A program made the position numbers and the translations under genes. A stretch of DNA of 64,000 nt from a bacterium (GTDB lineage Bacteria > Pseudomonadota > Alphaproteobacteria > Rs-D84): positions 5,995 through 69,994 of the forward strand of contig JAAVBP010000009.1 of NCBI GenBank assembly GCA_014803525.1, written 5' to 3'. The first letter of the stretch is position 1; the number at the start of each line of letters is the position of its first letter. Below, in pieces: positions 1 through 39,787 of this stretch. Below the pieces are notes generated by a model, which searched no databases, was not told where the DNA came from, and saw only the letters and a list, made by a program, of their open reading frames with translations.

Positions 1-2847
1 TTTGTTCTTTGTTTTGTCCACCGGCAGATACCGTTTCAGATACCGCCCGGTCGGCGAATCGGTTGCAGCGACCTGCTCTGGCGTACCAACGGCGATCACC
101 TGGCCACCGGCGGCGCCGCCTGTCGGCCCTAAATCGATTATCCAGTCGGCCGTCTTAATAACCTCTAAGTTATGCTCTATTACTATAACAGTATTTCCTT
201 GTTCTACCAACTCGTGCAATACAGATAGCAACATTTTTATATCTTCGAAATGCAAGCCCGTCGTCGGTTCGTCCAGGATATACAGTGTCTGCCCCGTGCT
301 GCGCGCCGCCAATTCTTTGGATAATTTGATGCGCTGCGCTTCGCCCCCCGACAGGTCCAGCGAACTCTGCCCCAGTTTGATATAATCCAATCCCACACGC
401 TTTAACAATTCTAATTTACGCGCAATTTGTGGAACATTGATAAAGAAACGATATGCTTCGTCCACTGTCATATTCAATACATCGGCAATAGACTTACCTT
501 TGTACTTTACAGCCAATGTTTCTTCGTTATAACGCGCACCATGACACTTGTCACATTCGACATATACGTCGGCCAAGAAATTCATTTCAATCTTTATCTG
601 GCCGTCACCTTGGCACGCCTCGCACCGGCCACCCTTTACATTGAACGAGAATCGGCCTGATGTATAGCCGCGGGCCTTGGCCTCGGGCAATCCCGCAAAG
701 AAATCACGAATATTGGAAAACACACCGGTGTATGTCGCCGGATTACTGCGCGGCGTACGGCCGATTGGCGATTGGTCAATATCAACAACCTTGTCTATAT
801 TTTCCATACCACGGATAATGTCATGCGCGCCGATTTCCATCTTGGAATTATACAGCGCACGCATCAATGCCGGATACAATGTTCGCAATAACAATGTCGA
901 TTTACCCGACCCTGATACACCAGTCAATGCAATGAATTTCCCCAGCGGAAATTCAACATCCACATTTTTCAGATTATGTTCTCGCGCCCCATGCACCGTG
1001 ATTGATTGCCCATTACCTGCGCGACGCGACTTTGGCACATCAATCTTTTTCTTGCCCGACAAATATTGTCCCGTCAACGATTCTTTATTCTTAATCACCT
1101 GGGCGGGCGTGCCGGCCGCGATAATACGACCACCATTTACACCAGCGTTCCGCCCAATATCAACCAGATAATCCGCCGCACGCATTGCGTCTTCGTCATG
1201 TTCAACAACGATAACCGTATTATCCTTGTCACGCAGCATTTTCAGCGTATCAATCAGTTTATCATTATCACTTTGATGCAGGCCGATTGACGGTTCATCC
1301 AAAACGTATAACACGCCGGACAGACCACTGCCGATTTGGGACGCAAGTCTGATACGCTGCGCTTCGCCCCCCGACAGCGTTCCCGCCATACGCGACATGG
1401 TTAAATACCCCAGGCCAACGTTTTTTAAAAACTCTAATCGGCTAGTAATTTCACGCAAGACTATACGCGCAATGTCGTTATCTTTCTGGGACAGATGATT
1501 CGGCAAATCGTTAAACCAATCGGTCGCGTCATCCACCGCCATTTCACAGACATCCATAATATCCATGCCGTTTATTTTCACACACAACGCCTGGATATTT
1601 AGACGTTTCCCATGACACATCGGGCACGGCTTTTCAGACTGATATTTGGCCAAGTCTGCCTTTGTCGCCTCGGAATCCGATTCGCGCCAGCGACGTTCAA
1701 TATTTGGAATCACGCCTTCATACGGTTTTTCATAAACAAAACCATTCCAATTTATCTTGATTGGTTCATCACCACTGCCGTACAAGATCAAGTTCTTTTG
1801 ATCTTCGGTCAATGTATGCCACGGTTTGGTCATTGGGATTTTATATTGTTTATGCAGCGCACTTAACAAGTGATCATACTGACTAAGCATACCACCACGC
1901 GACCATGGCGCAATCGCACCGTCCAAAATCGACTTACTGGGGTCTGGAACGACCAAATCTGGGGACATATTTAACTGCACCCCCAAACCATCACACGTTG
2001 GACAGGCGCCAACCGGCGCATTGAATGAAAACAGACGCGGTTCAATCTTGGGCACTGTAAAACCACTGACCGGGCATGCATAGTTTTGCGAATACAACGT
2101 ATCTTCATTTGTATCCAACCGACGCACCAAAACAGAACCTGGCACCAGACGCAAAGACCCTTCAAACGACGCATACAGGCGCGAACGAAATTCGTCCACA
2201 TCCGCATCCCCCGCCGGCATGGCCAGGCGATCCACAATCACCATAATATTGTGTTTTTTATTCTTGTCCAATGGCGGCACAGACGATAAATCATATAATT
2301 CGCCATCAATAATTGCGCGCTGATAGCCCTGCTTTACCAAAAATGCGATTTCTTTTTTATACTCACCCTTGCGGTCACGCACCAATGGTGCCATAACATA
2401 AATTTTTGTACCCGCCGGAATTTTCATGGTCCAATCGACCATTTCCGATATAGATTGTGATTTAATCGGCAGGCCCGTCACCGGCGAATACGGCACACCA
2501 ATACGCGCCCATAACAGCCGCAGATAATCATAAATTTCCGTCACCGTACCAACAGTTGAGCGCGGGTTTTTCGATGTTGTTTTTTGCTCGATCGATATCG
2601 CCGGCGCCAATCCCTCTATCAAATCCACATCCGGCTTTTTCTGCATATCCAAGAACTGGCGCGCGTATGACGACAAACTTTCGACATATCTGCGCTGGCC
2701 CTCGGCATAAATGGTATTAAATGCCAGCGAAGACTTGCCCGAACCAGATACACCTGTAAAGACCACCAATTTATTTTTTGGTATGTCCAGATCAACATTT
2801 TTAAGATTATGCTCGCGTGCGCCGCGAATTTTTATCACGTTTGCCAT
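1..2847 (-). CDS. uvrA: Excinuclease ABC subunit A (UvrA); the C-terminal last few residues are cut off by the window edge
   Basis: Minus-strand translation from the ATG at 2847 reads [17 protein letters not shown]. Both ABC signatures are present, and the C-terminal block reads [39 protein letters not shown] then TPEQVAANPTSYTGRYLKR. The ORF track only shows antisense ORFs here because the true ORF has no stop inside the window. Confidence 0.9.
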
Positions 2848-3056
2848 TTTCTTCACCAAATATAGATATTTTACCAAAAATTTCAACCAAAAGGGCAAAA
2901 AATATATTTACCTCACCATGTATAAATCCCCAACAATAAACAAATACACGAATTTATACTGGCCAATCATATACACACCGCCGCATTTTGTCAATTATTT
3001 TATCAAACGATAAAAGGGGGCCAACCGACCCCCAACTAATAAAAATCCCGTCCATA

Positions 3057-5973: not shown

Positions 5974-6336
5974 TTACTGTTCGCAAACTTCTACGGCATA
6001 CATCGCTTCGCCATCAACAGTCGGTTCCGCACCCAATACACGATAACAATTTACATCTACACCTTCAACTGTGCCAGCCGGAACAACGTCGATATAAACA
6101 TTTTCAACATCTGCGATGATTTCTTCGCTTGGGTTTACAGACAAGAACACCGCGTTCTTACCCGCATTGCGAATTGCATCAAATTCCGGAACAACCGGGC
6201 ATTTCGCCAAGAAATCACCACTTTCGCCAGTCGCGATTTTTTCGCATTTCTGACCCAGAACTTCAACCGAGTTATCTTTGCTGCAGCCAGCCAACAATGC
6301 GCCACACAGCAGCGGCAATACCAATAATTTTTTCAT
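5974..6336 (-). CDS. Small lipoprotein (signal peptide plus lipobox LAGC), function unknown
   Basis: MKKLLVLPLLCGALLAGCSK is a signal-peptidase-II-type signal. The protein is acidic with no recognisable domain. Confidence 0.5.
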   Translation of the reverse strand: MKKLLVLPLLCGALLAGCSKDNSVEVLGQKCEKIATGESGDFLAKCPVVPEFDAIRNAGKNAVFLSVNPSEEIIADVENVYIDVVPAGTVEGVDVNCYRVLGAEPTVDGEAMYAVEVCEQ

Positions 6337-6570: not shown

Positions 6571-6647
6571 GCGCCCTTAGCCCAGCTGGATAGAGCATCG
6601 GATTTCTAATCCGCAGGTCGCAGGTTCGAATCCTGCAGGGCGCGCCA
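6571..6647 (+). tRNA. tRNA-Arg (anticodon TCT), CCA encoded
   Basis: Cloverleaf: acceptor GCGCCCT/AGGGCGC, D arm GCCC-AGCTGGATA-GAGC, anticodon stem TCGGA/TCCGC with loop TTTCTAA, T arm GCAGG-TTCGAAT-CCTGC, discriminator G, then CCA. Confidence 0.9.
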
Positions 6648-6654
6648 TAAATTT

Positions 6655-6682
6655 AAACCGGCCTTGTGCCGGTTTTAATTTA
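6655..6682. terminator. Bidirectional intrinsic terminator (AAACCGGC-CTTGT-GCCGGTTTT)
   Basis: GC stem with T-runs on both strands, immediately 3-prime of tRNA-Arg and 3-prime of the minus-strand tRNA-like fragment. Confidence 0.6.
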
Positions 6683-6713
6683 TGCTGTGCGTCCCAGGAT
6701 TTGAACCTGCGAG
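6683..6713 (-). pseudogene. Degenerate inverted copy of the tRNA-Arg 3-prime half (T arm plus acceptor), a tRNA-like fragment
   Basis: The minus strand reads CGCAGGTTCAAATCCTGGGACGCACAGCA. The neighbouring tRNA-Arg 3-prime half reads CGCAGGTTCGAATCCTGCAGGGCGCGCCA. No matching 5-prime acceptor strand was found, so it is not an intact tRNA. Confidence 0.4.
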
Positions 6714-6889
6714 GCAAGCAGGTCGAACCGCCGCAAAAAGGCAGACGAACGTATGCCGGTTTGCATCAGCAAATTTTGCAAGGTCGGCGAAGCCAATCCT
6801 GCAGGGGCACCCAGCATGGCTAACAAATAATTTTTTTACTATTGAAAAAAAATTGTATTTCACATAAACTAATGCATTGAACAGCAGAG

Positions 6890-7099
6890 ATGTGTGTTCG
6901 GGGCCTTAGAAAGCCTTAGATCATTCGGTGCGAAACGGCATCGTAAATCTTTATATCCGGTGCCATCGCACCGTTGCAACCCCGGCAAGTGCCGGGGGGC
7001 CGTCGTTATAAAACAGGGTTCACCTAAAAGCGTCGGGAATCACTGATGATCTGATTTTTCTAACCCCCCGGCCACCAAATCTGTTTGGTGGTTTTTATT
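6890..7099 (+). promoter_or_regulatory. Structured leader upstream of the Cys-rich gene pair, ending in an intrinsic terminator (possible riboswitch or attenuator; class not recognised)
   Basis: Nested hairpins are GGTGCGAAACGGCA...TGCCATCGCACC and CCCCGGCAAGTGCCGGGG. The leader ends with CCACCAAATCTGTTTGGTGGTTTTTATTTT only 27 nt before the ATG at 7127, and a ribosome-binding site AAGGGGG follows the terminator. Confidence 0.35.
7072..7099 (+). terminator. Rho-independent terminator (CCACCAAA-TCTG-TTTGGTGG plus T5)
   Basis: Perfect 8-bp stem followed by TTTTTATTTT on the plus strand. Confidence 0.7.
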
Positions 7100-7126
7100 T
7101 TGATGCACAAAAAAAGGGGGACATCA

Positions 7127-7990
7127 ATGAACAAAATACTAATTATCGGCGCATTTATACTAATCCCATTTATTAGCCATGTATATGCGGGCGAACATAA
7201 GGCCGGTGCAGATAATTCGTGCTTTTACGACAGTAATCCAGGTAAATCGAAGTGGCACTACTATTTTTGCGGCAAGGAACCCATTGACAAAAACAACAAA
7301 ATAAAGTGCAGCGGCAAAGAGTACAAAGGCGCCGATAGACTAGACGGCGAAAAACCCAATGGAGATATGAAAAAACAGTTGATGAATCATGAAGTATTCA
7401 CTTTTACCACCAAAGAAGAAGATACATACTGTTGTTGCGGCGGGACAAGCAACACTGCCGGCCGCTTTGAAAAAGCGAAAAACACCCAGAACTGTTATAC
7501 AGACGACAAACCCACAGAAGAAATAAAGAACTTGGGAAATGGCAAGGCATGTAAAATGCTGACATATAAAACAGTGTGCGGCGATACACATACGATCGAC
7601 TGCAACACACCAGAAAACGAAACATGTGGCACAGGATACATATGGCGTAATAACGAATGCGCACCAATATGTGGAGGCGACACAGTATACGAATCGGAAT
7701 ACACAAACACATGCATAATATGCAAAACCACCGTATACCAGGGAATTTTTGGCGACGCGCAAAACAAATATTGCAAACGATGCGACAAAGACACCGAATT
7801 CTTTAATCGCACAACAAAACAATGCATAAAAAAATCAACATTGATGGCACATTCCAAATTGGCAATCCATGAATGCTGGCAATGCCCAACAACCAACACG
7901 CAAAAACAATGTGTCCAAGCGGTAACAAACCACAACACCACAGGCACCCCAATCCCCGACAACATAAAAAAGATATGCAACCTAACCTAA
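7127..7990 (+). CDS. Secreted cysteine-rich protein, paralogue A (family unknown)
   Basis: Signal peptide MNKILIIGAFILIPFISHVYA. About 30 Cys. Blocks shared with paralogue B: DNSCFY, YYFCG, FTF, CCCGGT, TYKTVCG.T.T..CNTPE.ETCGTGY.WR, C..C.TT.YQGI, YC..CD.DT.FF.R.TK.C and CWQC. Confidence 0.75.
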   Translation: MNKILIIGAFILIPFISHVYAGEHKAGADNSCFYDSNPGKSKWHYYFCGKEPIDKNNKIKCSGKEYKGADRLDGEKPNGDMKKQLMNHEVFTFTTKEEDTYCCCGGTSNTAGRFEKAKNTQNCYTDDKPTEEIKNLGNGKACKMLTYKTVCGDTHTIDCNTPENETCGTGYIWRNNECAPICGGDTVYESEYTNTCIICKTTVYQGIFGDAQNKYCKRCDKDTEFFNRTTKQCIKKSTLMAHSKLAIHECWQCPTTNTQKQCVQAVTNHNTTGTPIPDNIKKICNLT

Positions 7991-8101
7991 TAGCCAACAC
8001 AACCGCACCACCAAGGACAAAAAAGCGTTTCAAAATCCTGTTGAATAAAGTTCTGGTTTTCAGTAAGATACCATAAACAAAACCTGAGAAGAGAACCAGT
8101 C

Positions 8102-8923
8102 ATGAAATATTTGTCCGCTACAATTGCCGTATTAATGTTAATAACACCGGGGGCATTTGCCAGAAATTACAAGCACGCATCTGATAATTCGTGTTGGTAC
8201 GAAACAGAGTATGGCAAAAAAAGCACTGGCGACAACTGGGGATACTATTTCTGCGGGCCAATGGCACAAAAATGTGACGGAAAAAAGCACAAAGGGCATG
8301 ACTTTGCAAAATCTTATATGGATATGGAAATGTTTACGTTTAAGAATAAACGTACAAATGAACCCAATTCATTTTGCTGTTGCGGCGGCACTGAAACCAC
8401 TAATGGTCAATTTGTGGCCGCGGATTCAAAGTCAGGCAACTGCTTTGTCGGTGATCCCATAGAAGAAAAAAAGCCCCTGGGCAACAATGAATTTTGCACA
8501 AGACGAACCTATAAAACCGTTTGCGGTGGCACATATACTGTTGAATGCAATACCCCAGAACCCGAAACATGCGGCACGGGATACGTGTGGCGCGACACGA
8601 CAAAGTCATGCGCACAAATATGTACCGACGGCCAGGTGTTTGAAGAATATACAAACAAATGCATCTCTTGCGAAACAACCGCATACCAGGGAATCGCAGA
8701 TGAAATGCCCAAACTGTATTGTATGAAATGCGACAGGGACACCCAATTTTTTGACAGACAAACAAAAACGTGCGTATCCAAAAAATCAGGCAACTTTATG
8801 GAACGTCAAAAAATGATCCTGCAAAAATGCTGGCAATGCGCAACACTGGCAGACACCACAAAATGCGTTACAGCCAACGGGGAACCAACCGATTCCAGTG
8901 TTAAATCCAGCTGTCAGTTGTAA
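8102..8923 (+). CDS. Secreted cysteine-rich protein, paralogue B
   Basis: Signal peptide MKYLSATIAVLMLITPGAFA. Same cysteine framework as 7127..7990. There is no terminator between the two genes, so they are likely co-transcribed. Confidence 0.75.
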   Translation: MKYLSATIAVLMLITPGAFARNYKHASDNSCWYETEYGKKSTGDNWGYYFCGPMAQKCDGKKHKGHDFAKSYMDMEMFTFKNKRTNEPNSFCCCGGTETTNGQFVAADSKSGNCFVGDPIEEKKPLGNNEFCTRRTYKTVCGGTYTVECNTPEPETCGTGYVWRDTTKSCAQICTDGQVFEEYTNKCISCETTAYQGIADEMPKLYCMKCDRDTQFFDRQTKTCVSKKSGNFMERQKMILQKCWQCATLADTTKCVTANGEPTDSSVKSSCQL

Positions 8924-8940
8924 TCAAAAACACAAAAAAA

Positions 8941-8966
8941 TAAGCCCCATTCCGGGGCTTATTTTC
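8941..8966. terminator. Bidirectional intrinsic terminator (AAGCCCCATTCCGGGGCTT)
   Basis: GC hairpin flanked by A-run and T-run, between convergent genes. Confidence 0.6.
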
Positions 8967-17448: not shown

Positions 17449-20400
17449 TTATTTCAACTGGCGCAAATATTGTTTTATAAATGCTAGATTGTTCCTAAAA
17501 CCACCTAAACCGCCATCAGCATGAGTCTGTGGAGCATAGGGGAAATACTTGTTAATATCATTAATATCTATAGACTTAAAATCATTCAATGTCGCAACAA
17601 TACCTTGGCCTCCCAAACTTTCGCGTCCCATTGTTTCCAAGACCATTTCTGTATTTCTTAAATCACCAACTTCAGAATCCAAAATATTCGCAATTTGTTT
17701 TAATTCAACAGAATCATAGTGGCGAATAATATCATCACCGCCTTTATTGAACCAACCGTCGCGCCCAATACCGCCAAAGAATTCCCATTTACCGGTCGGA
17801 ACATTTGTTTTACCTGCGGTTCCCGTGGATATATAGAACGGTAATTTGATATCGCCAACTTTTACCATACATATTGCGCGCCCATGTATTGCGCCAACGT
17901 CACTAAGGCTTTCAATATATACTGGACGACCATGTATATCCCCCAAAGTACGACCAATTTTACTTTCCAAACTAGCGAGATTCGGATTTGAAATTGTGCG
18001 TGTTAAGGTACGGCCTCTGATGTTTAAGCCTTGTGCAATGGCATCATCACGCGTCATTGCAATTACGATATGGGGCGATGATTCACCATAACCAAGGGTA
18101 TCTAAGGCGACCGCAAAATCTCCTTTCGCAAAAGTAATATTTGCCATAGTTTCTGCAGTAGACGCTCTCATCGGGGACGATATATATACATTTTGATCTG
18201 CATATGTCTTATTTATGGGACCTGCCCTGGCCAAACGATTTTCAATAATCTGTCGATTGGGGGATGGCGCATTATTTGCGGGTTTGACTGTTGTGGCTGT
18301 TGCAGATTTAGTCGCACCAGCCGAATATTTCGGCTTCTGTATAAATGGGAGCAAGCTTTCATAGCTTGCTGAATCTTCTACTATTGCAACCATATATTGA
18401 TTACCGCGTTGTATTTTCCCAGCATAGATATTCTGTGCCTGCAGACGCGCAACTATTTTATCTGCCTCCTCTTCGGATGCGACGGCTTTACGGAACTGTC
18501 TGACACCAGCAGAATTTTGGTTGGCCGCAGATTCAAATAAATCATTCAGCCCCGTACGCGCACTCATATTATCAAGAGAGGTGTTTGTAGCACGGTTAGC
18601 AGATTTTAATCCGCTTAGATAATTTGTTATATCATCAGTGTTGCTTATAAACTGATAATTGCGCCCAGGTGTAATTTTCATATATCGATTAACCTCCTCA
18701 ACACTTATGGAACGAAAGTTTTCTATTACGGCCACTGGGCCACGCCCCCCCAAACTCTGACGCCCCAAGGTTTCCAAAACATATTCCGTATTTCGCAAAT
18801 CGCCAATCTTGTCATCTAACATTGTAGCAATTTGTTTTAATTCCTCAGACCCATAATGATTTAAAATATCGTCCAAATATCCCTTATTAAACCAACCAGA
18901 TTTCGGGTCAATTCCGGCAAAGAACTCCCATTTTCCTGTTGGAATATCCGTCTTGCCTGCTGTACCCGTGGATATATAGAATGGAATTTTTCGGTCACCA
19001 ACCTTTACCATGCATATCGGACGACCACTTATTACCCCAACATCATTAAGACTTTCAATATATACTGGCGTGCCATGTATATCACCTAATGTCTGACCAA
19101 TTTTACTATTCAATGTGGTCAGATTAGAATTGGAAATTTTACGCACTAATTTGTTGCCATTGACAGCTAGCCCTTGCGCTTCGGCATCAGCACGAGTCAT
19201 TGCGATTACTATCTCGTCCGCATTACTTGCTCCCTCTGTATTCAAACTTACCGCAAAATCCCCTTTAGCCCGAATGTGTCGTACAGCATCACTCGCATCA
19301 ACATTGGAGGCCGGCGCAGATATATATACATTATGTCCTTCATACACTTTGTTGACAGGACCAAGTTCTGCAATCTCGTCCTTAATAAATTCACGACTCA
19401 AAACGACGGGGTTCTCCGCCTTGCGTGCTTCTTCTGCTTTGCGAGCTTCTTCAGCTTTACGAGCTTCCTCGGCCTTGCGTGCTTCTTCAGCTTTACGCGC
19501 CTCTTCTGCTTTGCGTGCCTCTTCAGCTTTACGAGCTTCCTCGGCCTTGCGTGCTTCTTCAGCTTTACGCGCTTCTTCAGCTTTGCGAGCCTCTTCAGCT
19601 TTGCGAGCCTCTTCAGCTTTGCGAGCTTCCTCGGCCTTGCGTGCTTCTTCTGCTTTGCGTGCTTCTTCTGCTTTACGAGCTTCCTCGGCCTTGCGTGCTT
19701 CTTCTGCTTTACGAGCTTCCTCGGCCTTGCGTGCTTCTTCAGCTTTGCGAGCCTCTTCTGCTTTACGAGCATCGGTGGCTACTTCAGACTCACGATGTGC
19801 CTTGGATACATCATCAGCCTGGCGTTCCGCAACAACGGCCGTTTCAGCATTATTAACAGCATTCGCATTATCAGCGACATCGCCTGCACGGGATGCCGCG
19901 CGGACGGTATCATCCGCGTGGGATGCAGCACCGGCCGCACCGCGTCCCCCATTGCGCAATGCTGCGGTGGCACGCGGCAGTTTCTTAACACCCCAGCTGA
20001 CCACGCTCTTTATAATACTGGCCAATTGCAGTGTTAATCCAACCGCACGCCAAATCTCTTCGGGCTGCCATGATGACATTCCCTTATTATTTGCACCGGT
20101 AGATGTGCCGTTTTTCATTAAATCTTTATAAAACCGTGAATTTGGTTGTATCAACCCAGCCAAACGTGCCAATTCGTTATCAATTCCATTTACAACCGCA
20201 TCTGGCAAATCATTTGCCAAATCAGCCATACGCTGTAAATCACGTTTCAGCATACTTTCCGCGCACGATGCATCGTTGCACTTTCTGCTCTCTGCCAGAA
20301 ATTCATCACCGGCATTTTGCATACGGCGCGTAGCTTCAAATTCTATTGCGGCACCGGCTGTTTCCACTGCCAGTAACGCCAATGCCGGCGCGCCAGCACC

Positions 20401-22371
20401 CCCGGTTGCCACAGTCAACACCACGCCAGCCGTCGCACCTGCTGCAATAATCAACAATTGTTCGTTGTTTTGTAAATCTTTTGCATCCTCAGCACTGGGC
20501 ATACGACAAACCTCGCCATCCCAATATATAGTTTTACATTTTGCACATGTTGCAGCATTTGTTGCCATTAACCTGTTGCACGCCTCCTTGCCCAGGTACA
20601 TACATTCGCGACCGTTATACTGGCCCCCTAGCACCTTGCAATCTATATTTTGCAGACTGCCTTTGTGCAGAGCGTTCTCAAATTCCGACATATCGTCAAA
20701 TACAAAGTCAACCTCTTGATTGCCATTAATAGTGCAACGCAACACATCATCCGTGGACCCCTTGACACTATGCCCTTCAATCTTTGACATTTGACGTGGG
20801 TTTTGAACACAAGAAAAGCTTTTTACGCCACTTTTAACGTTCTGTACATATTTACGCAAACTGCCCTCTATTGTTGGGACCGCCTGAAACTGGATAGCAC
20901 CGGAATAAAAATAATACGAATCAATGCCCGGGATTTCTTTGATTTTATTCTTGCCGCCGCTGTCACCGCCAATTGTAACAAAGACACACTTTCCATTTTC
21001 CCACTTTACGTTATACCCAAGCTTTTTAGCGGTTTTTGCGAAGTTACCATTACACGTTGCAGCAGATATTTTTGTACACTCATTTATCCCCACGCCGCCA
21101 TATATTCCATGGCAAATTGAATACATTACCGATGTCTGAATCATTCCATCAAAAGATTCCTTCACATCATCGAATTTAAATTCGTAATAAACCACCCCGT
21201 CTGTTGTAGCGCATTTTATATAATCGTCATTCCAACTGGTTCGACGATCATTTTGACATACAATTGTATTGCCGTGTTTTACCCGCGCATATTCCTGGGC
21301 TAGTGCAATCGCCTGCATTATCTGAATATTTGTGCTGGAAAAGGCATCAGTTATGCAATATTCTTTCTTGCCGGTTTTGCCTTTGTCTGCACCACAAACC
21401 GCGCGATACATATTACTGTGCTGAAATTCGTCTGTTCCTGGATTACAGACACACTGGTTCTTTGAATGCTGAATAATACTGCCTGTATGTTTACAGTTAT
21501 TTGTATTTGCGTGTTGCTTGCAAAACGCAGTACACAACGCTAATGTATTATTTTGCGATGTTTCCGGATGCATACTGGTGGGACATGCAACGTTTTTGGC
21601 AGCACGCGCCATAGATTCCTTGGCTGCATCAACCTCTGTCGTTTGGGCGTTACAGATACATTCTTTGGTACTGTGCCGCATAACAACATTTGTCACCGCA
21701 CAATTTTCGCGTGTACCCTTGGCCTTGCAAAAGTCGAGACATTTAGCAGATGTATTATTGTCTTTGTTTTCTTTGTGTATGCTGCGCGCACAAAGTGGTG
21801 TTCCAACGGGTATAGGCGTATTGCACGCGCCACCACGCAAGTCATAATTTCCTTTGCACACCAACGCCATACAGGTACAACTGTAACTTTCGTTACGTTG
21901 AAATACAACCTCGCCCATGGCGATATGCGAAGAAGTACATATATCCCCAACACGGGTTTTATCTGTAATAGAGCTTAATTTGTTCGGATTTTTACCATTT
22001 TCATCCAATCCAGGACAAAATCCACCAAGCGCATTTTCATCTACTTCATTGCCGGTATTATTCAACAGTGCCGTCACAAAATTCCGACAGGTTTCAAAGC
22101 CGTTTGCGTGATATGTATTCAGGCCACCCGCACGGCATATTGCAAACAGGTCTGCGATTGATACGGCACCAGTTTCCGGATTCATCAATGTAATATACTT
22201 TTGCGCCATTGCTATCTGACGTTTATCATCAGTAATAAAATCCGGTATCGTAGCCGCCAGATTTTCAGCCGTAAATATATATTTTTGTTCGGCATCCGCA
22301 TAAGTCTTGGGCGCACCAAATGCCGACACTATCATAATCAGTGATAAAAACGCCAGGGCTATTTTCTTCAT
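17449..22371 (-). CDS. Giant secreted/surface multidomain protein (1640 aa) with a Cys-rich N-terminal part, a Gly/Ala-rich hydrophobic segment, about 20 KAEEAR repeats and a tandemly duplicated ~280-aa C-terminal domain
   Basis: Signal peptide MKKIALAFLSLIMIVSAFGAPKTYA. Two ~55-aa Cys modules (C..FCK.....NC...CNxxT.E). Hydrophobic LLIIAAGATAGVVLTVATGGAGAPALALLAV. C-terminal domain A (~aa 1000..1290) and domain B (~aa 1400..1646) share GDFAV, IVIAMTRxDA.AQGL, GDIHGxPVYIESL, ICMVKVGD, PFYISTGTAGKT, PTGKWEFF and GDLRNTE.VLET. The start is set to MKK at 22371; the track ORF starts 6 codons upstream. Confidence 0.8.
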   Translation of the reverse strand: MKKIALAFLSLIMIVSAFGAPKTYADAEQKYIFTAENLAATIPDFITDDKRQIAMAQKYITLMNPETGAVSIADLFAICRAGGLNTYHANGFETCRNFVTALLNNTGNEVDENALGGFCPGLDENGKNPNKLSSITDKTRVGDICTSSHIAMGEVVFQRNESYSCTCMALVCKGNYDLRGGACNTPIPVGTPLCARSIHKENKDNNTSAKCLDFCKAKGTRENCAVTNVVMRHSTKECICNAQTTEVDAAKESMARAAKNVACPTSMHPETSQNNTLALCTAFCKQHANTNNCKHTGSIIQHSKNQCVCNPGTDEFQHSNMYRAVCGADKGKTGKKEYCITDAFSSTNIQIMQAIALAQEYARVKHGNTIVCQNDRRTSWNDDYIKCATTDGVVYYEFKFDDVKESFDGMIQTSVMYSICHGIYGGVGINECTKISAATCNGNFAKTAKKLGYNVKWENGKCVFVTIGGDSGGKNKIKEIPGIDSYYFYSGAIQFQAVPTIEGSLRKYVQNVKSGVKSFSCVQNPRQMSKIEGHSVKGSTDDVLRCTINGNQEVDFVFDDMSEFENALHKGSLQNIDCKVLGGQYNGRECMYLGKEACNRLMATNAATCAKCKTIYWDGEVCRMPSAEDAKDLQNNEQLLIIAAGATAGVVLTVATGGAGAPALALLAVETAGAAIEFEATRRMQNAGDEFLAESRKCNDASCAESMLKRDLQRMADLANDLPDAVVNGIDNELARLAGLIQPNSRFYKDLMKNGTSTGANNKGMSSWQPEEIWRAVGLTLQLASIIKSVVSWGVKKLPRATAALRNGGRGAAGAASHADDTVRAASRAGDVADNANAVNNAETAVVAERQADDVSKAHRESEVATDARKAEEARKAEEARKAEEARKAEEARKAEEARKAEEARKAEEARKAEEARKAEEARKAEEARKAEEARKAEEARKAEEARKAEEARKAEEARKAEEARKAEEARKAEEARKAEEARKAENPVVLSREFIKDEIAELGPVNKVYEGHNVYISAPASNVDASDAVRHIRAKGDFAVSLNTEGASNADEIVIAMTRADAEAQGLAVNGNKLVRKISNSNLTTLNSKIGQTLGDIHGTPVYIESLNDVGVISGRPICMVKVGDRKIPFYISTGTAGKTDIPTGKWEFFAGIDPKSGWFNKGYLDDILNHYGSEELKQIATMLDDKIGDLRNTEYVLETLGRQSLGGRGPVAVIENFRSISVEEVNRYMKITPGRNYQFISNTDDITNYLSGLKSANRATNTSLDNMSARTGLNDLFESAANQNSAGVRQFRKAVASEEEADKIVARLQAQNIYAGKIQRGNQYMVAIVEDSASYESLLPFIQKPKYSAGATKSATATTVKPANNAPSPNRQIIENRLARAGPINKTYADQNVYISSPMRASTAETMANITFAKGDFAVALDTLGYGESSPHIVIAMTRDDAIAQGLNIRGRTLTRTISNPNLASLESKIGRTLGDIHGRPVYIESLSDVGAIHGRAICMVKVGDIKLPFYISTGTAGKTNVPTGKWEFFGGIGRDGWFNKGGDDIIRHYDSVELKQIANILDSEVGDLRNTEMVLETMGRESLGGQGIVATLNDFKSIDINDINKYFPYAPQTHADGGLGGFRNNLAFIKQYLRQLK
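19407..19771 (-). repeat. Coding 18-nt tandem repeat, about 20 copies, translating to (KAEEAR)n
   Basis: GCTTTGCGAGCTTCTTCA-type units with synonymous wobble variation inside the giant ORF. The plus-strand ORFs 19115..20131 and 19174..20037 are antisense artefacts of this repeat. Confidence 0.9.
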
Positions 22372-23324
22372 TTCAATACCCCCGTGCATTTTTCAGCGAT
22401 GGTTGCCACTTTCTTTATCGCGCTGATTTGCGTTGCATTAAATACCGTCGCCGTCGCGGATGCCACCGTGGTTGCACCAGACAGGACATTTGCCGCCGTG
22501 TTTAGATTTTTTTCTTTCTGTTTGCCCGCATCCGTATTATCGTTGCGCGTTTTATCCGTATTTGCGATTGCCGATGTTACCGTACCCGCCGCACCGGTTG
22601 TTGCGCCGACAATCGATGATATCATCGCACCTTTGGCCCGATTGTTTATCTTTGACACATCAACATAATCGTATTCAGCGCAGGCAGCGATAATCTCTTG
22701 CGCCTCTGATACGTCTTCGCCATTGACGCGTGCCTGCATCATAGACTGGCGCAGCTGACTTACCGACGCTTTGCAATCATCAATTTGCGCCTTTAAATCC
22801 TTATCGACCTTATTATTTCCGGCGATAATCGCGCCCGCCACATTGGTCGCAGTACTGCCCGCAATCAGGCCAGTTCGCCAATTACCCAGACGCTTTGATT
22901 GTTTGGTCAGTTTTTCAATTTCATCTTCGATGTCCCGCTTTTCGTCTTTGTTGGCGTCATAGTAATCTTGCATCCGGGCCAATATTTCCGCCCGATTGAT
23001 TTCCGGTGTCGGATTTCCGCGTGTTATTTCTTTTAATTTTTCCAACTCTTTTTCAAGATTTGCAATTTGTTTATCTTTGTTCACCTTTACAATACCAACA
23101 ACGGTTGCACCCGCACCGGCCGCCGTACCAACCGCAGTCACCGCCGTGTTTATTCCAGCCATCTTTTTCAAATCGGCTAATTCATCATCAATGCCAACAC
23201 ATGCAGTATATGTCGCCCGCAACGCATCATCCAATGACAAAATATCAGCATGCGCAACAAGCGGCATAAAACAACACAATAAAGCAACGAAACGCTCTCT
23301 CATTTTTCCCTGGCCGACTGGCAC
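22368..23324 (-). CDS. Secreted coiled-coil protein with four Gly/Ala/Thr-rich hydrophobic segments
   Basis: Signal peptide MRERFVALLCCFMPLVAHA. Segments AVTAVGTAAGAGATVVGIV, TGLIAGSTATNVAGAIIAG, ISSIVGATTGAAGTVTSAIA and LSGATTVASATATV alternate with charged coiled coils. It lies immediately upstream of the giant gene and its stop overlaps the giant gene's start. Confidence 0.6.
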   Translation of the reverse strand: MPVGQGKMRERFVALLCCFMPLVAHADILSLDDALRATYTACVGIDDELADLKKMAGINTAVTAVGTAAGAGATVVGIVKVNKDKQIANLEKELEKLKEITRGNPTPEINRAEILARMQDYYDANKDEKRDIEDEIEKLTKQSKRLGNWRTGLIAGSTATNVAGAIIAGNNKVDKDLKAQIDDCKASVSQLRQSMMQARVNGEDVSEAQEIIAACAEYDYVDVSKINNRAKGAMISSIVGATTGAAGTVTSAIANTDKTRNDNTDAGKQKEKNLNTAANVLSGATTVASATATVFNATQISAIKKVATIAEKCTGVLK

Positions 23325-34513: not shown

Positions 34514-37500
34514 ATGATAAAAAAGCTATTTTCTTTTATTTTCTGCCTGGCGCCGGTTGGTGCAATGGCGGCAACGGTTGACCTGGTTCCGGGGGATGGA
34601 AATGGAAATATAGAAATCCCCAGCACGCAATATCCGGAATATCCGACCGGATTAAACATACCCGCAACAGGTAACAGTGCGGTTATTCAAAACGCCCTGA
34701 ACGATGATGGGACCACAAAATATATAGCCAAGTATTTGTCACTGGGCAATAATGGGATGAATGTGGCAAATCTGTCAGTTGGGGATTATGCATCCGGCGA
34801 AATCGGCTGGGGCGAAAAAGGCTTCTTATATATAGCAAATGATACGGCATCCAGCACCGCAGATGGATTCCTGATCAGTTCAACGGGAAGCGTTTCTATT
34901 GCAACTTTGTTACGCGTATTATCTGATCAATCGTTAACCATTGCGGGTACAACCAATACACTGATTGATCTAAGCGTTGGTGACGGCACAACAAACAGCG
35001 GAATTCAAAATGCAGGTGTTTTAAATCTGACAAATATTGACGGTTTTGTCGCAGGATCGCCAGTTTCCAATACCGGCAGCATCTTGGCCATCGATGCAAA
35101 CACGGTAAACATGCAATCACTTGACACAACAAATGGCAATGTGACGGTCAATGCAAATGAAGCGGATGCACTAAAAATATCGGCATATATCCAAAATAAT
35201 ATAACCAGTGGCGGCGCCGCAGAATCAACGAAACTTACGGCATATAATATGACCGTTGGCGGCACAATACAAAATGGTTCCGGGACAATGGATATTACAA
35301 TGAATGGCGGAAACCTGCTGGTGGGTGGTTCCATTGAAAACAAGTCCGGCAGTGATATGAACATCACCTATTCCGATGCATCCATTACCACATCAACAAT
35401 ATCGGTAAACGGCGCCATCACAAATGAAGGTAATTCGTCATCTATGGTAATCAAAACCGGCGGAAACCTGAATATATCTGGCCAGTATACACCAGAATCC
35501 GGCGAACCCACATATGGCAATGCATCAATTGTAAATGGGGGTAATTTGTACATTGATGTTGGCGGAACAATAACGCTGAATAACGGTTTTGATATCAGCA
35601 CAATGGCCCAGACCAATACGTTGGAAATCAAAACAGGCAAATTGACCGTCGGAAACAGTGACGCATCACATTGGCTAGACCTGTTTTCAAACAGATTGAA
35701 TAAATATGTGCTGAACATAACAAACGATTCGCTAAATTTGGGCACAACCGGCATAACCAACGGGTCTGATAACAACGCAAATGCCAATATGACACTAAGC
35801 GCACAGAATGTAACGGCCGGCCTGGTTACAAATAACGGCGACAAGTTATATATTGCGTTACCATCACTGGATAACAACGGGACCGAGGTTGTAAATCCAA
35901 TAACCGGAAACATTACGATTACCGGTAATGTTACAGGGAATTCGGGTGTAACGACCCTGGCTGCGGGCGGAACACTGGGAACCGGCGCGGTTAACAACAG
36001 CGCCACAATGAATCTTAGCGGCGAAGGCGGTACAACCATTGCATCTGTTTCAAATTCTGGAACATTAACAGTATCATCATTAACCAGCAGTACCGGCAAT
36101 ATTAATATCATTGGTGACGTTACAAATACCGGCAATGCAACAATTACATCACGCGCAATCACAATTGGCGGCAACATCGTAAACAATGCCGGGAATTTAG
36201 CCATATTAGGATCTGATGATGGCACAGGGGCCGCGGTCAACCTGGGGGCATTAACAGCGGCCGGCGGTCAAACAACATTGAACGCACTGGTCGGGCAGAT
36301 AACCATGAATGGAAATTTGGATGTTACCAGTGGTGGCCTGAATATGGGTGGCGCAACAACCAACCTTGATGTAACAGGTGCAACAACGGTAAATGGGGAC
36401 ATTACATTGGCTGCAATTGATAACAGCACCATTTTACCGGCTGGGACAATGAATATCAGCAACAGTGGCACCCAAAAATTTGTTCTGACATCCACCGATG
36501 GAATAACGGTTGGCGGTAATATTCTGGCCACACAAAATGATTTTGCGCGCACGGCCCAGTTTGTAGCAAAAAACCAGTCTGACGGCACCGTCCAGAAAAT
36601 AACCGTCGGTACATCTGATACAAATGGAAATATCACAGCCACAGGGCGTGGTCATCTGATATTCGGTGACGCAGGAAATCAATCCGAACTAACCGCCACG
36701 GGTACTGTTTCTGCTACAAAATCTAATAATAATATCGGCAGCATTGAATTTTATGGCAACCAGACAACAGTTGGCGCCTTGGCCGGCGACGGCTTATTCA
36801 TTGCGCATGGAACAATGAATGACGATGATGCCGAAACATCCATTACGGCAACAACCGGGAATATAAATATAACCGACGCAATTTACTTTAATAATCCGGC
36901 AACCGACCCGTCAACCGGATTGATTATCAAAGACACCAAGAATTTTACACTTAACACGAACAGCGGCAGCATTGGTGTCGGTGGAATTGAATTAACCACA
37001 GGCAACACATTAAAACTGGATTCTGCATCCAACCTGGCGGTAACAGGTACAATTGAAAATACAGGCAACCTGACGTTACAGGCGGCGGAACTGGCATTCC
37101 TGGCCCAGGATTTGACCAACAACGGCACAATCAAAATTGATGCCGCAACAATTGATATGCAGGATATAACGAATAATGCAGCGGCCGACCTGGTCGCTAG
37201 GGATATCCGTGCCGGCAATATTACCGCAAACGCGAACAGCGCCATGACCATTACATCCGATGATTTGGCGGCGGGTGCACTGGATATCGCAGAAAGCGGC
37301 GTTGTAAATTATGATGTAGGTGACGCCACATTCACAGGCGCCATAACTGTAAACGGGAATATTGTCCAGGGTACACCGGACAATACAGATGGTGCATTGA
37401 ATATAATACGCGCAACAAATCTGACCGCCGATTCATTAAATTTAACCGGCAGCTTTATCACGAAATCTGGTGCGGGCGTATATGATTTTAAAAACAACGT

Positions 37501-39787
37501 TACCATATCCGGGGACATAAGCACAACTGGTGGCCAGACACATATTTTCGCCAGAAACGGTAAATTAACCGCAAAAGATATAAATAATACAGCAACATTA
37601 ACACTGTCCGGCGCGAATGGCATTGATATCACAGACACCATTGCATCCACTGGTAATTTAACATTAGATTCTGGCACAGGCTTGACAACAGCAGATACAA
37701 TTTCGTTGGCCGGCACAACAACATTATTGGGCACAGGGTTAAGCACACCGAACACATTCGCGCAAAATACACTGTACCAAAATTATGGCGGCACATTGAT
37801 GGGCGGTGATGTAAATGTTATATCTTCTGATTATACAATAACGGCATCTGATGTGGCCCTGGGCAGCCTGGCGCAAATATATGGCCACATGACATTGAAT
37901 ACCAGTGATCTAAGGGTTGTCGATAGTATTGATGCAACAGATCTGCGCGTTGCAGCAAACCCGTCGACAACATGGCTGACGGTCGATGTTGGCGGCAACG
38001 TTTCAGGCAACACACAATTCATCGGACTGGGTCACATGAAAATTGGCGGAAATTATACATATAATTCCAACAGCAACCTGATGATGGCAATATTGTCACC
38101 GAACGATGCCGGACGTGATTATTGGGCTGATATTAGCATGACCGACGATCAAACATTCGGTCAGATAACAAATCGCAGCCCAGACGCCGAACCGTTAATA
38201 TCTGTGGGCGGGACATTTATCACAGATTTGACAATGAATTTCTCTGATCGGGCGGGTCTACAGAGCAATGGCGAAATGGGTGTCGAAATATTCGACATGA
38301 TTGACCAAGGAACCGCAATATGGTTACTGAATGCCCAAGGCGGCATCCGCGAAGAAGGATCAAAAATTCGCAATATTGTGGTTAAATTCTGTAATGCCGA
38401 CGGTACGAAATGCTTTGATTACTTTAAACCCGCGGTTGGTCTGAATGAAACAGGTACGGATCTGCCGGCATACATATCCGTACGCGACACGACCAGCGAT
38501 GGTATCGCCGACAGCCTGTATCTGGTATTTGATCCGCGCTTTGGCGGCCCGGTAGAGGTGTTTAAGATCCAACCAATTGTCGGTCGTGAAAATGACCATA
38601 CAAAAAATGAATATCTAACTGCGGGCGCACTGGACGATATGATTGCAGGCGGTCTGGCCGATGCAAAATTCAATAATCGCACCCCGATAGAGGCGATCCC
38701 GGTCGCATTTGCCGGCACGAACATGGAAACCGCCGCAAATGAAATCTATAAGCGTATGGAATATTATACCGAAACACATGATGGCCACAGTCTGGCCCGT
38801 ATCAGCCGCCTGTTCCAGCCACGCGAAACAGAACAGATATCGGGCGCAATTGTGCTGAATGAACATACATCTTTCCGCGATTTCGAAGACCACATGCTGG
38901 ACGAATTTATCTGGAATCGCAATCGCAACCTGCGCAAGGCCTGGGGTGAATTTGACTTTGGCTTGGTCCGTCAAAACACCTCCGATGACGAGCGCGCGTC
39001 TGCGAACCGTTTCAGTTTTACCGGTGGATATGATTGGCAGGAAACCCAAACCCTGATATTGGGTCTGGCCGCGCGTGTATCCCACACATCCGGCAACAAT
39101 AATACCCATATAGACTTAAGCTATATCCCAGGCCAATCGATTGCCGGGAATGTCGATATAGATGTTGCGGATACAGATTTTGGCGTGGGCGCATATATGT
39201 TGAAAAACATGGGGACCAAGATGCGGGTATACGGCAACGCATTCTTGGATCTGCACTGGCTGGACGTGACACGTAATCAGACATATATGTCATCAATATC
39301 CGGCGACACTACTGCATTTAGTCTGATATCCGAATGGGGATTGATGCACGATTGGTTAAACCAATATATTGTTGGCAATGCATATGCACGCGTCGGGTAT
39401 AATTTTGGATTCTCGATGACGGAAGAAGCGGCCGGCGATGAGTATCTGAAGCTGAAATCAGATGGTTACTTTATCGTAACACCGGGATATACCCTGACCG
39501 CCCAAAAGCGTATATATCCGTCCCCGTGGTTCCAGATGCGCCCCTATGCGTCCGTCGGTGTCGAATACGATGTATTGGGCGCACCGGATAATGCGAAATA
39601 CAAGTTTGCGGCGGCACAAAACTTTACAAAATATGATATCGAGATTGATCCGCTGTGGGCAAATATCGGTGGCGGTATGGAATTCCTGTCGGTGACGGGC
39701 GTCCAGGTTGGCCTGGATTACCGGTACCAGTATAATGCCGACATCCAAATGCATAAGATAAAGTTGTCCGGATCATACCGCTTCTAA
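34514..39787 (+). CDS. Large autotransporter (type Va) outer-membrane protein with a ~1450-aa Gly/Asn/Thr-rich beta-helical passenger
   Basis: Signal peptide MIKKLFSFIFCLAPVGAMA. Repetitive passenger (NGTIKID and GNLTL motifs). C-terminal ~280-aa beta-barrel with alternating hydrophobics, ending ...KLSGSYRF. Confidence 0.85.
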   Translation: MIKKLFSFIFCLAPVGAMAATVDLVPGDGNGNIEIPSTQYPEYPTGLNIPATGNSAVIQNALNDDGTTKYIAKYLSLGNNGMNVANLSVGDYASGEIGWGEKGFLYIANDTASSTADGFLISSTGSVSIATLLRVLSDQSLTIAGTTNTLIDLSVGDGTTNSGIQNAGVLNLTNIDGFVAGSPVSNTGSILAIDANTVNMQSLDTTNGNVTVNANEADALKISAYIQNNITSGGAAESTKLTAYNMTVGGTIQNGSGTMDITMNGGNLLVGGSIENKSGSDMNITYSDASITTSTISVNGAITNEGNSSSMVIKTGGNLNISGQYTPESGEPTYGNASIVNGGNLYIDVGGTITLNNGFDISTMAQTNTLEIKTGKLTVGNSDASHWLDLFSNRLNKYVLNITNDSLNLGTTGITNGSDNNANANMTLSAQNVTAGLVTNNGDKLYIALPSLDNNGTEVVNPITGNITITGNVTGNSGVTTLAAGGTLGTGAVNNSATMNLSGEGGTTIASVSNSGTLTVSSLTSSTGNINIIGDVTNTGNATITSRAITIGGNIVNNAGNLAILGSDDGTGAAVNLGALTAAGGQTTLNALVGQITMNGNLDVTSGGLNMGGATTNLDVTGATTVNGDITLAAIDNSTILPAGTMNISNSGTQKFVLTSTDGITVGGNILATQNDFARTAQFVAKNQSDGTVQKITVGTSDTNGNITATGRGHLIFGDAGNQSELTATGTVSATKSNNNIGSIEFYGNQTTVGALAGDGLFIAHGTMNDDDAETSITATTGNINITDAIYFNNPATDPSTGLIIKDTKNFTLNTNSGSIGVGGIELTTGNTLKLDSASNLAVTGTIENTGNLTLQAAELAFLAQDLTNNGTIKIDAATIDMQDITNNAAADLVARDIRAGNITANANSAMTITSDDLAAGALDIAESGVVNYDVGDATFTGAITVNGNIVQGTPDNTDGALNIIRATNLTADSLNLTGSFITKSGAGVYDFKNNVTISGDISTTGGQTHIFARNGKLTAKDINNTATLTLSGANGIDITDTIASTGNLTLDSGTGLTTADTISLAGTTTLLGTGLSTPNTFAQNTLYQNYGGTLMGGDVNVISSDYTITASDVALGSLAQIYGHMTLNTSDLRVVDSIDATDLRVAANPSTTWLTVDVGGNVSGNTQFIGLGHMKIGGNYTYNSNSNLMMAILSPNDAGRDYWADISMTDDQTFGQITNRSPDAEPLISVGGTFITDLTMNFSDRAGLQSNGEMGVEIFDMIDQGTAIWLLNAQGGIREEGSKIRNIVVKFCNADGTKCFDYFKPAVGLNETGTDLPAYISVRDTTSDGIADSLYLVFDPRFGGPVEVFKIQPIVGRENDHTKNEYLTAGALDDMIAGGLADAKFNNRTPIEAIPVAFAGTNMETAANEIYKRMEYYTETHDGHSLARISRLFQPRETEQISGAIVLNEHTSFRDFEDHMLDEFIWNRNRNLRKAWGEFDFGLVRQNTSDDERASANRFSFTGGYDWQETQTLILGLAARVSHTSGNNNTHIDLSYIPGQSIAGNVDIDVADTDFGVGAYMLKNMGTKMRVYGNAFLDLHWLDVTRNQTYMSSISGDTTAFSLISEWGLMHDWLNQYIVGNAYARVGYNFGFSMTEEAAGDEYLKLKSDGYFIVTPGYTLTAQKRIYPSPWFQMRPYASVGVEYDVLGAPDNAKYKFAAAQNFTKYDIEIDPLWANIGGGMEFLSVTGVQVGLDYRYQYNADIQMHKIKLSGSYRF

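Follow-up and report, generated by a model that had tools for sequence, protein, structure and literature searches.

What kind of RNA precedes the two tandem cysteine-rich protein genes (gene 1 and gene 2) of an alphaproteobacterial contig, and what does it do to them? The contig is JAAVBP010000009.1, of which the 64,000 nucleotides (nt) from position 5,995 to 69,994 were analysed (the window; all positions below are counted within it unless a locus is named). We propose that the leader of the two genes is probably a self-targeting antisense regulator of the pair, directed against the Shine-Dalgarno (SD) sequence in the manner of the phage c4 RNA, and that it represents a module reused for secreted Cys-rich proteins. 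Sequence comparisons would place this leader, in divergent but full-length form, in the RNA class that Rfam models by its 3' part as the small RNA (sRNA) sRNA-Xcc1. The RNA class itself was already known; newly found are the extended Xcc1 architecture and its association with a new kind of gene.

Transcription would start near 6877, since the promoter-like site identified upstream aligns with promoters in relatives, which read TTGACA-17-TACAAT/TTCAAT at this position. The segment 6876..7100 (225 nt) folds with an energy of -92.4 kcal/mol, lower than that of any of 200 shuffled versions (z = -5.56). The T-run of the leader ends about 26-28 nt upstream of the ATG at 7127. Including the window, 14 full-length copies of the leader were retrieved with nhmmer (E 1e-19 to 1e-66). 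It lies 5' of family genes, whose encoded proteins are merely 25-55% identical, in 12 loci (among them L005, L008, L010, L011, L012, L025, L060, L063, L064, L065 and L068). Partial copies were found in L066 and L067, and a variant keeping the long-range pairings around a different middle was found in L001-L003 and L007. In every copy a terminator-type hairpin is followed at about 15-25 nt by a G-run SD, and then by the start codon. The leader is not restricted to the family. A second copy in L008 (925..641, minus strand) precedes an open reading frame (ORF) for a secreted Cys-rich protein of 204 aa (646..32, minus) unrelated to the family (hhalign probability 3%), and a copy in L061 (1744..1520, minus) lies directly 5' of a UvrD-family helicase gene (1512..1, minus), the family gene of the same locus, 1.3 kb from this leader, being itself leaderless.

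The wider reach of the leader was surveyed by pattern and similarity searches. A metagenome scan at the DNA level with a pattern taken from the leader 5' motif returned 45 loci, 44 of which were false positives in coding sequences, L025 being the sole true one. In these cases (L015-L059 except L025) the pattern, ATGT..YGGGGYCKTAGMAARCC, falls on the antisense strand of an unrelated enzyme's gene, in a conserved stretch of its coding sequence that recurs in many environmental metagenomes. A pattern scan of viral contigs returned nothing, nor did the blastn search of plasmids and phages with the window leader.

The structure of the leader was examined on an alignment of 14 leader sequences (A6), compared with slid controls and 500 shuffles. 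Standard pairs occupy 91.4% of the A6 cells, against 40-46% in the slid controls; both sides have changed in 32 of the 63 A6 pairs, and none of the shuffles reached any of the observed measures. From 5' to 3', the RNA folds into a 5' hairpin (P1), a pseudoknot and a junction closed by helix P4, which holds the hairpins Pa, Pb, X:Y and P5. The pseudoknot, formed by S1 and S2, is of the H type with a first loop of 2 nt, and S2 was seen in four complementary versions (beyond the window: UAGCAA/CUGCUA, UCAAAA/UUUUGA and UGAAAAA/UUUUUCA). P4 provides 7-10 complementary bp in all 14 copies with a sequence that is essentially different each time. The second inner hairpin of the Xcc1-like domain is conserved without compensatory change, and two unpaired stretches, UAUAAAACAGG and GGAAUCA, are strongly conserved. 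The coordinates of these elements and of the other features of the locus are collected in Table 1.

Table 1. Positions of the leader elements, the gene pair and the reference leaders (window positions, unless a locus number is given)
Feature	Position	Strand	Remarks
Promoter-like site, sigma-70-like (TTGAAA, 17 nt, TAAACT)	6842..6870	+	Aligned sites in relatives
Whole 5' leader RNA, putative full-length sRNA-Xcc1 type, ~250 nt	6877..7126	+	14 full-length copies
P1, hairpin at the 5' end of the transcript	6879..6899	+	Compensatory changes in 4 pairs (helices 1-2)
S1 hairpin (GGGC/GCCU), strands 6901..6904 and 6913..6916	6901..6916	+	Compensatory changes in 3 of 4 pairs
S2, S1-loop UAGAAA with UUUCUA	6907..6912 / 7057..7062	+	Compensatory changes in 3 of 6 pairs
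P4 helix, 5' strand UAGAUCAU with 3' strand	6917..6924 / 7046..7053	+	Compensatory changes in 8 of 8 pairs
Pa and Pb, CGGUGC hairpins within the P4 junction	6926..6943; 6958..6973	+	98-99% of cells paired; changes mostly one-sided
X:Y hairpin, X (CCCCGGC) 6980..6986, Y (GCCGGGGGG) 6991..6999	6980..6999	+	95% paired; 2 compensatory pairs
sRNA-Xcc1-like 3' domain (Y:Z closing stem, P5, hairpin-2 region)	6990..7081	+	Sub-threshold match to RF02221
P5, first inner hairpin of the Xcc1-like domain	7000..7036	+	4 compensatory pairs
Z, C-run (CCCCCCGGC), candidate anti-SD	7064..7072	+	Can pair with Y or SD
Intrinsic terminator, 10-bp stem + UUUUUAUUUU; hairpin 7070..7093, TTTTTATTTT to 7101	7070..7101	+	5 compensatory stem pairs
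A-tract, then GGGGG SD (7116..7120)	7109..7120	+	SD complementary to Z
Gene 1, secreted 22-Cys protein, 287 aa (P0001; NCBI 'hypothetical protein HDR61_03535 [bacterium]')	7127..7990	+	ORF, alignment, NCBI match
Gene 2, paralog of gene 1, 273 aa (P0006)	8102..8923	+	ORF, alignment
Bidirectional terminator after gene 2	8937..8965	.	Closes the pair
Bona fide Xcc1 leaders	L069 1385..1620; L070 1380..1612; L071 about 50..830; L072-L076 about 560..830

Three other ways of reading parts of the leader were set aside. A helix W:Z, proposed by RNAalifold between GGGG at 6900..6903 and CCCC, was demoted, the changes in L063 and L061 not being compensatory and the same Gs covarying within S1. The likeness of the terminator CCACCA to a tRNA 3' end, which would recall a T-box, was dismissed as CCACCA covaries freely (CCGCC, CCACU, CCGCU). 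A translated leader peptide (ORF 6894..7046) was not supported either, substitutions being stem-compensatory, although no formal test was made.

The element that would give the leader its switching capacity is the G-run Y. Besides its pairing with X, it can form with the C-run Z a 9-bp helix that is present in each of the 14 leaders, where 99.2% of its cells are paired and 4 of its pairs show compensatory changes; matched variants are GGGUGG/CCACCC in L063 and GGGGAG/CUCCCC in L011, L064 and L061. X:Y and Y:Z exclude each other, yet compensatory change keeps both, which is the hallmark of alternative conformations. According to nearest-neighbour energies, the fold with X:Y and P4 is preferred by 1-13 kcal/mol to the fold in which Y:Z is forced. 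Moreover, Z complements the SD in each of the 14 leaders, and the two have changed in step in L063 (CCACCC/GGGUGG), a clean compensatory case. The Z/SD match of the Alphaproteobacteria leaders is locus-specific (150 of 20,000 permutations as low) but weaker than that of the bona fide Xcc1 loci described below. In the window, pairing at the downstream site is limited to CCCCC/GGGGG and to a 5-bp UGAUG/CAUCA match, for -12.6 kcal/mol.

The relation to sRNA-Xcc1 was brought out by searching Rfam. RF02221 matches the 3' domain of the window leader with 37.8 bits (E 2.8e-4 in a 3.5-kb search, 5e-3 in a 64-kb search), and sister copies yield sub-threshold RF02221 matches of 35-41 bits at the same relative position (L005, L012 and both copies of L008). 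A permissive scan of the window with Rfam 15 left nothing but tRNAs and this below-threshold Xcc1 match, with no riboswitch, T-box, leader-peptide or tmRNA model. The reference set consists of nine bona fide sRNA-Xcc1 copies (65-75 bits), found on plasmids of P. aeruginosa, Klebsiella (IncL/M), Azospirillum, Pantoea and Pasteurella, in records of Aeromonas caviae and Neisseria gonorrhoeae and, twice in tandem, in the Stx phage TL-2011c. Eight of the nine are followed at 25-60 nt by a gene on the same strand, namely 7 annotated coding sequences (CDSs) and a predicted Aeromonas ORF; the Neisseria record carries no annotation downstream of its Xcc1 copy. The genes that follow are mostly of the antirepressor type (BRO, Bro-N, KilA-N, Rha, a 'putative antirepressor' and an ORF6N-like ORF). 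This agrees with earlier reports that placed Xcc1 before symE in Xanthomonas integrons (bioRxiv 10.1101/2025.06.18.660453) and before an ORF6N gene in APSE phages. A match to RNA-OUT, the IS10 antisense RNA (85.9 bits), was also noted on the Klebsiella IncL/M plasmid, at L072 255..323, about 375 nt upstream of Xcc1.

All nine bona fide loci carry a 5' domain of the S1/S2/P4 type, about 90-135 nt upstream of the part modelled in Rfam, and no Rfam model covers it. In this domain a hairpin loop complements the U-rich strand before Z (S2 versions UCGAAA/UUUCGA, UAAGAA/UUCUUA and UGGAAA/UUUCCA), and the next strand complements the loop of Xcc1 hairpin 2. Over 23 RNAs, the duplex between the 5' and 3' domains of the same locus has a mean energy of -19.4 kcal/mol, against -11.0 kcal/mol for mismatched loci, and none of 20,000 permutations was as low. 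In the bona fide loci both boxes recur over or just upstream of the SD, as exemplified by L072 (UUCGAAAAAACAGUAAGGGG), and the antisense part is matched specifically to the translation start region of the same locus, with only 1 in 20,000 permutations reaching as low a value. These comparisons indicate that a leader of about 200-250 nt would be represented in the Rfam model by its 3' domain only.

The original prediction had described the segment upstream of gene 1 as having the layout of a riboswitch or attenuator of an unrecognised aptamer class. Much of that description stood. A structured leader with a strong terminator just before the ATG was found. It was met again, with compensatory substitutions, in 13 further loci and is kept in most of the relatives that keep the genes, contrary to the refuting condition set with the prediction, and this conserved cis RNA very probably controls the gene pair. 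The aptamer part gave way, since the 3' half gives a below-threshold match to sRNA-Xcc1 and the bona fide Xcc1 loci share the architecture as a whole. A ligand-sensing riboswitch, extended to the whole Xcc1 class, would use the pseudoknotted junction as aptamer and X:Y/Y:Z, the terminator and SD sequestration as platform; it would represent a new class, since no Rfam riboswitch model matches. The complex, conserved and covarying fold with its pseudoknot, the strongly conserved unpaired stretches, the two mutually exclusive helices each with covariation support, and the presence of both a terminator and an SD-complementary strand speak in its favour. We hold it to be unlikely, since the downstream genes are metabolically incoherent (family genes, an unrelated Cys-rich ORF, UvrD, Bro-N/KilA-N/Rha antirepressors, symE), the terminator does not clearly compete with either fold, and a hypervariable locus-specific helix whose strand is repeated at the bona fide SD is a signature of antisense specificity and not of a ligand pocket. 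Such heterogeneous downstream genes together with a locus-specific hypervariable helix are better accounted for by a c4-like anti-SD regulator than by a metabolite riboswitch. Distinctly unlikely is also a reading in which the whole sRNA-Xcc1 class forms a signal-responsive, riboswitch-like switch, its pseudoknotted 5' domain sensing a small molecule or a cellular state and gating the release of the anti-SD, with phage and plasmid antirepressors and the host-facing secreted Cys-rich proteins of gut Alphaproteobacteria under its control.

Under the self-targeting antisense interpretation, a two-gene operon of paralogous Sec-exported proteins would be transcribed from the promoter-like site through the leader of about 250 nt, which adopts the fold with the 5' hairpin, the S1/S2 pseudoknot and the P4-closed junction. 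The G-run Y can pair alternatively with X or with Z, the intrinsic terminator coming after Z, and Z would pair with the GGGGG ribosome-binding site, so that the leader shuts off its own downstream genes. This would be the c4 logic, in which an operon is repressed by an antisense RNA contained in its own leader. The leader may also act in trans after termination. Gut Alphaproteobacteria would then have attached the module to secreted Cys-rich proteins and occasionally to other genes.

Several observations weigh against this interpretation. The 3' domain of the window leader stays under the RF02221 gathering score (37.8 vs 53 bits). Family genes without leader are found in 5 loci (L004, L009, L013, L061 and L062). 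The Alphaproteobacteria leaders show no clear repeat of the P4 and S2 boxes at the SD, even though P4 is hypervariable in them. The terminator stem loses at most about 3 bp in either alternative fold; regulated termination is thus no more than a possibility. Lastly, the published view of sRNA-Xcc1 is that of a trans-acting sRNA (PMC2996969; PMC12189769).

This last point leads to the possibility that the RNA of about 225 nt is an independent trans-acting sRNA gene lying beside the Cys-rich genes with no effect in cis. It has its own promoter and intrinsic terminator, sRNA-Xcc1 was observed on Northern blots as a discrete RNA of about 88-100 nt (PMC2996969), and Xcc1 copies form tandem arrays in Xylella (PMC12189769). 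We consider this quite improbable. The T-run lies too close to the ATG for another promoter to fit between them, and all 14 copies keep the spacing and the unusual G-run SD along with the RNA. Wherever a downstream gene has been called for a bona fide copy, the copy is placed at its short distance before a CDS of the same strand, and the complementarity to the SD region is locus-specific. The limited effect of the folds on the terminator bears on a further explanation, in which the leader is a platform for a protein (antiterminator or translational repressor) that sets the alternative helices. The conserved single-stranded motifs and a terminator not obviously regulated by the RNA folds themselves would suit it; since no neighbouring regulator gene is conserved across the leader contexts, we regard it as very improbable.

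If a c4-like self-targeting leader is the right description, the consequences would reach beyond the window. Annotations of sRNA-Xcc1 are spread over many genomes, among them those of Stx phages, IncL/M plasmids, Xanthomonas, Xylella and Neisseria, and the literature treats the RNA as a trans-acting, virulence-linked sRNA. The class would have to be reinterpreted as a c4-like self-targeting regulator of the gene directly downstream. In the window, its junction with a private, structurally confident and fold-orphan family of disulfide-rich secreted proteins of uncultured gut Alphaproteobacteria would give a handle on the timing of protein production.

The proteins under this putative control were also characterised. 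As originally predicted, they form a tandem paralogous pair, with 42% identity over the full length (E 6e-72, pairwise alignment), and the motifs quoted for them (DNSC[FW]Y, YYFCG, CCCGGT, TYKTVCG..CNTPE.ETCGTGY.WR and CWQC) are all present in both. The framework of about 30 Cys had to be corrected to 22 in each protein. Secretion was supported by Sec-type signal peptides read from the sequence, MNKILIIGAFILIPFISHVYA followed by G for gene 1 (cleavage between FISHVYA and GEHK) and MKYLSATIAVLMLITPGAFA followed by R for gene 2 (cleavage between TPGAFA and RNYK); both have a basic n-region, a hydrophobic core and a small-x-small site, with no lipobox Cys. Neither protein has a Pfam or NCBIfam match, and no Pfam model was detected even at E<=1. 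An exhaustive phmmer search of 1.8 billion cluster representatives recovered 66 clusters at E<1e-3, of which 38 at E<1e-10, nearly all of 255-300 aa. The alignment of 43 members contains 12 invariant and further near-invariant Cys, and all 43 start with a signal-peptide-type sequence. Matches in genome collections all come from gut or rumen metagenome-assembled genomes labelled Alphaproteobacteria or proteobacterium, with one exception labelled Muribaculaceae.

The AlphaFold2 model of the gene 1 protein, built from the family alignment, reached a predicted local distance difference test (pLDDT) of 92.2 and a predicted template modelling (TM) score (pTM) of 0.64. Its N-terminal half is rich in beta structure, small beta-hairpin Cys modules follow one another at about residues 160-235, and the C-terminus is helical. 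Foldseek returned no match at E<=1e-3 (best PDB E 0.087, TM <= 0.15; best BFVD E 0.02), and the family profile matched nothing among PDB sequences at E<=1. The failure to assign the pair to a known family was thereby upheld, and we regard the two proteins as members of a genuine unannotated, fold-orphan, disulfide-rich secreted family, whose function is, as the likeliest guess, that of a disulfide-rich extracytoplasmic binding or structural protein. The further suggestion of eukaryotic mimicry or lateral acquisition found little to sustain it. The Pfam matches behind it are sub-threshold and concern 2-3 of 43 members (Ephrin_rec_like PF07699 in 2, best E 0.0011; GF_recep_IV PF14843 in 1, E 0.0082), the local Foldseek PDB matches to Cys-rich regions of CD40/TNFR, EGFR/HER, Elapor1 and CaSR are weak and non-significant, the homologs sit in gut Alphaproteobacteria, and the G+C content of the two genes (0.42) is not anomalous against the window average of about 0.45. 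At the leaderless locus L009, a small ORF for a secreted Cys-rich protein (93 aa, 2681..2962) lies directly 5' of the family gene and may be another member of a Cys-rich secretome.

Genes 1 and 2 are presumably co-transcribed as one operon, since neither a terminator nor a second leader copy was found in the 111-nt spacer between them and a terminator lies 3' of gene 2. Gene 1 and its orthologs have a tRNA-Arg on one side and, on the other, a conserved set of genes for DUF308, APH-like kinase, TolC/OEP and ABC-2 transporter proteins, relatives having a single family copy at this position. Gene 2 resembles members placed elsewhere with their own leader (L008, L063, L064), and the family appears to comprise two subfamilies, of gene 1 type and gene 2 type. 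On the upstream side, two partial copies come after tRNA-Arg(TCT) (6571..6647): one of its 3' half in inverted orientation at 6668..6712 (arms of 45 nt with 80% complementarity) and a direct one of the same half at 6781..6806 (77%). These copies look like scars of site-specific recombination at tRNA-Arg(TCT), and in the relative L001 an integrase/helix-turn-helix/SocA island occupies the same tRNA and adjoins the Cys-rich gene. A two-piece tmRNA considered for the tRNA-like stretch 6680..6830 was dismissed, the stretch consisting of these partial copies; ARAGORN detected the tRNA-Arg alone. Elsewhere in the window, two very large ORFs were noted at 17449..22389 (minus strand) and 34514..39787 (plus strand), of 1646 and 1757 aa.

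How does the locus compare with known systems? At the protein level, the C-terminal half of the window protein (about 160-235) resembles the Cys-rich modules of eukaryotic receptors (TNFR, furin-like, Ephrin_rec_like, GF_recep_IV) by its serial C-x2-C and C-x(n)-C beta-hairpin modules, whereas its N-terminal beta domain and C-terminal helices have no counterpart there. The likeness is thus at most weak and confined to the C-terminal repeats.

With sRNA-Xcc1, an integron-cassette sRNA of Xanthomonas campestris that occurs on plasmids and phages as well, the window leader shares a 9-bp G/C-rich closing stem (GYCGGGG.. / ..CCCCGRC) around two hairpins, an inner hairpin with an AUA(A/C)AA(C/U)A internal loop, a U-rich strand of the UUUCUA type just 5' of the C-run and a position directly 5' of a CDS on the same strand. 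It differs by the reversed G/C polarity of the inner hairpin (GGG..CCU instead of CCC..GGG), by the canonical terminator hairpin after Z, by the lack of a clear repeat of the pairing boxes at the SD, and by the nature of the downstream genes, which code for secreted Cys-rich proteins or UvrD and not for antirepressor-type proteins or SymE. The S1/S2 pseudoknot and P4 upstream are shared with the nine bona fide loci and fall outside the Rfam definition; both the Rfam model and the literature treat Xcc1 as a stand-alone sRNA of about 88 nt from which this 5' domain is left out.

A third comparison concerns the phage P1/P7 c4 antisense RNA (RF01695); in one Xylella genome Xcc1, isrK and C4 lie in tandem (PMC12189769). 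No C4 or isrK match was obtained at E<=5 in the window or at E<=1 in the bona fide Xcc1 loci. The c4 RNA is a processed RNA of 77 bases that represses Ant synthesis, and a c4-a1b1 motif exists. In the work of Citron and Schuster from 1990 and 1992, the c4 boxes reportedly comprise a1b1 upstream, a'b' in the antisense RNA and a2b2 at the ribosome-binding site. The window leader departs from c4 in its fold, a pseudoknot with a three-way junction in place of two hairpins with a' and b' loops, in its target pairing, evident for the C-run and SD alone, and in its downstream genes, which encode secreted Cys-rich proteins and do not form a phage antirepressor operon. Like c4, it would be an antisense RNA inside the leader of an operon under its own repression, with complementary boxes upstream, the 5' strands of S2 and P4 standing for the upstream a1/b1 site; at the ribosome-binding site of the window the complementarity is limited to the C-run and the 5-bp match. 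The bona fide Xcc1 loci display the three-site layout of c4, the antisense RNA lying between one copy upstream and another at the ribosome-binding site, and mostly precede antirepressor-type genes.

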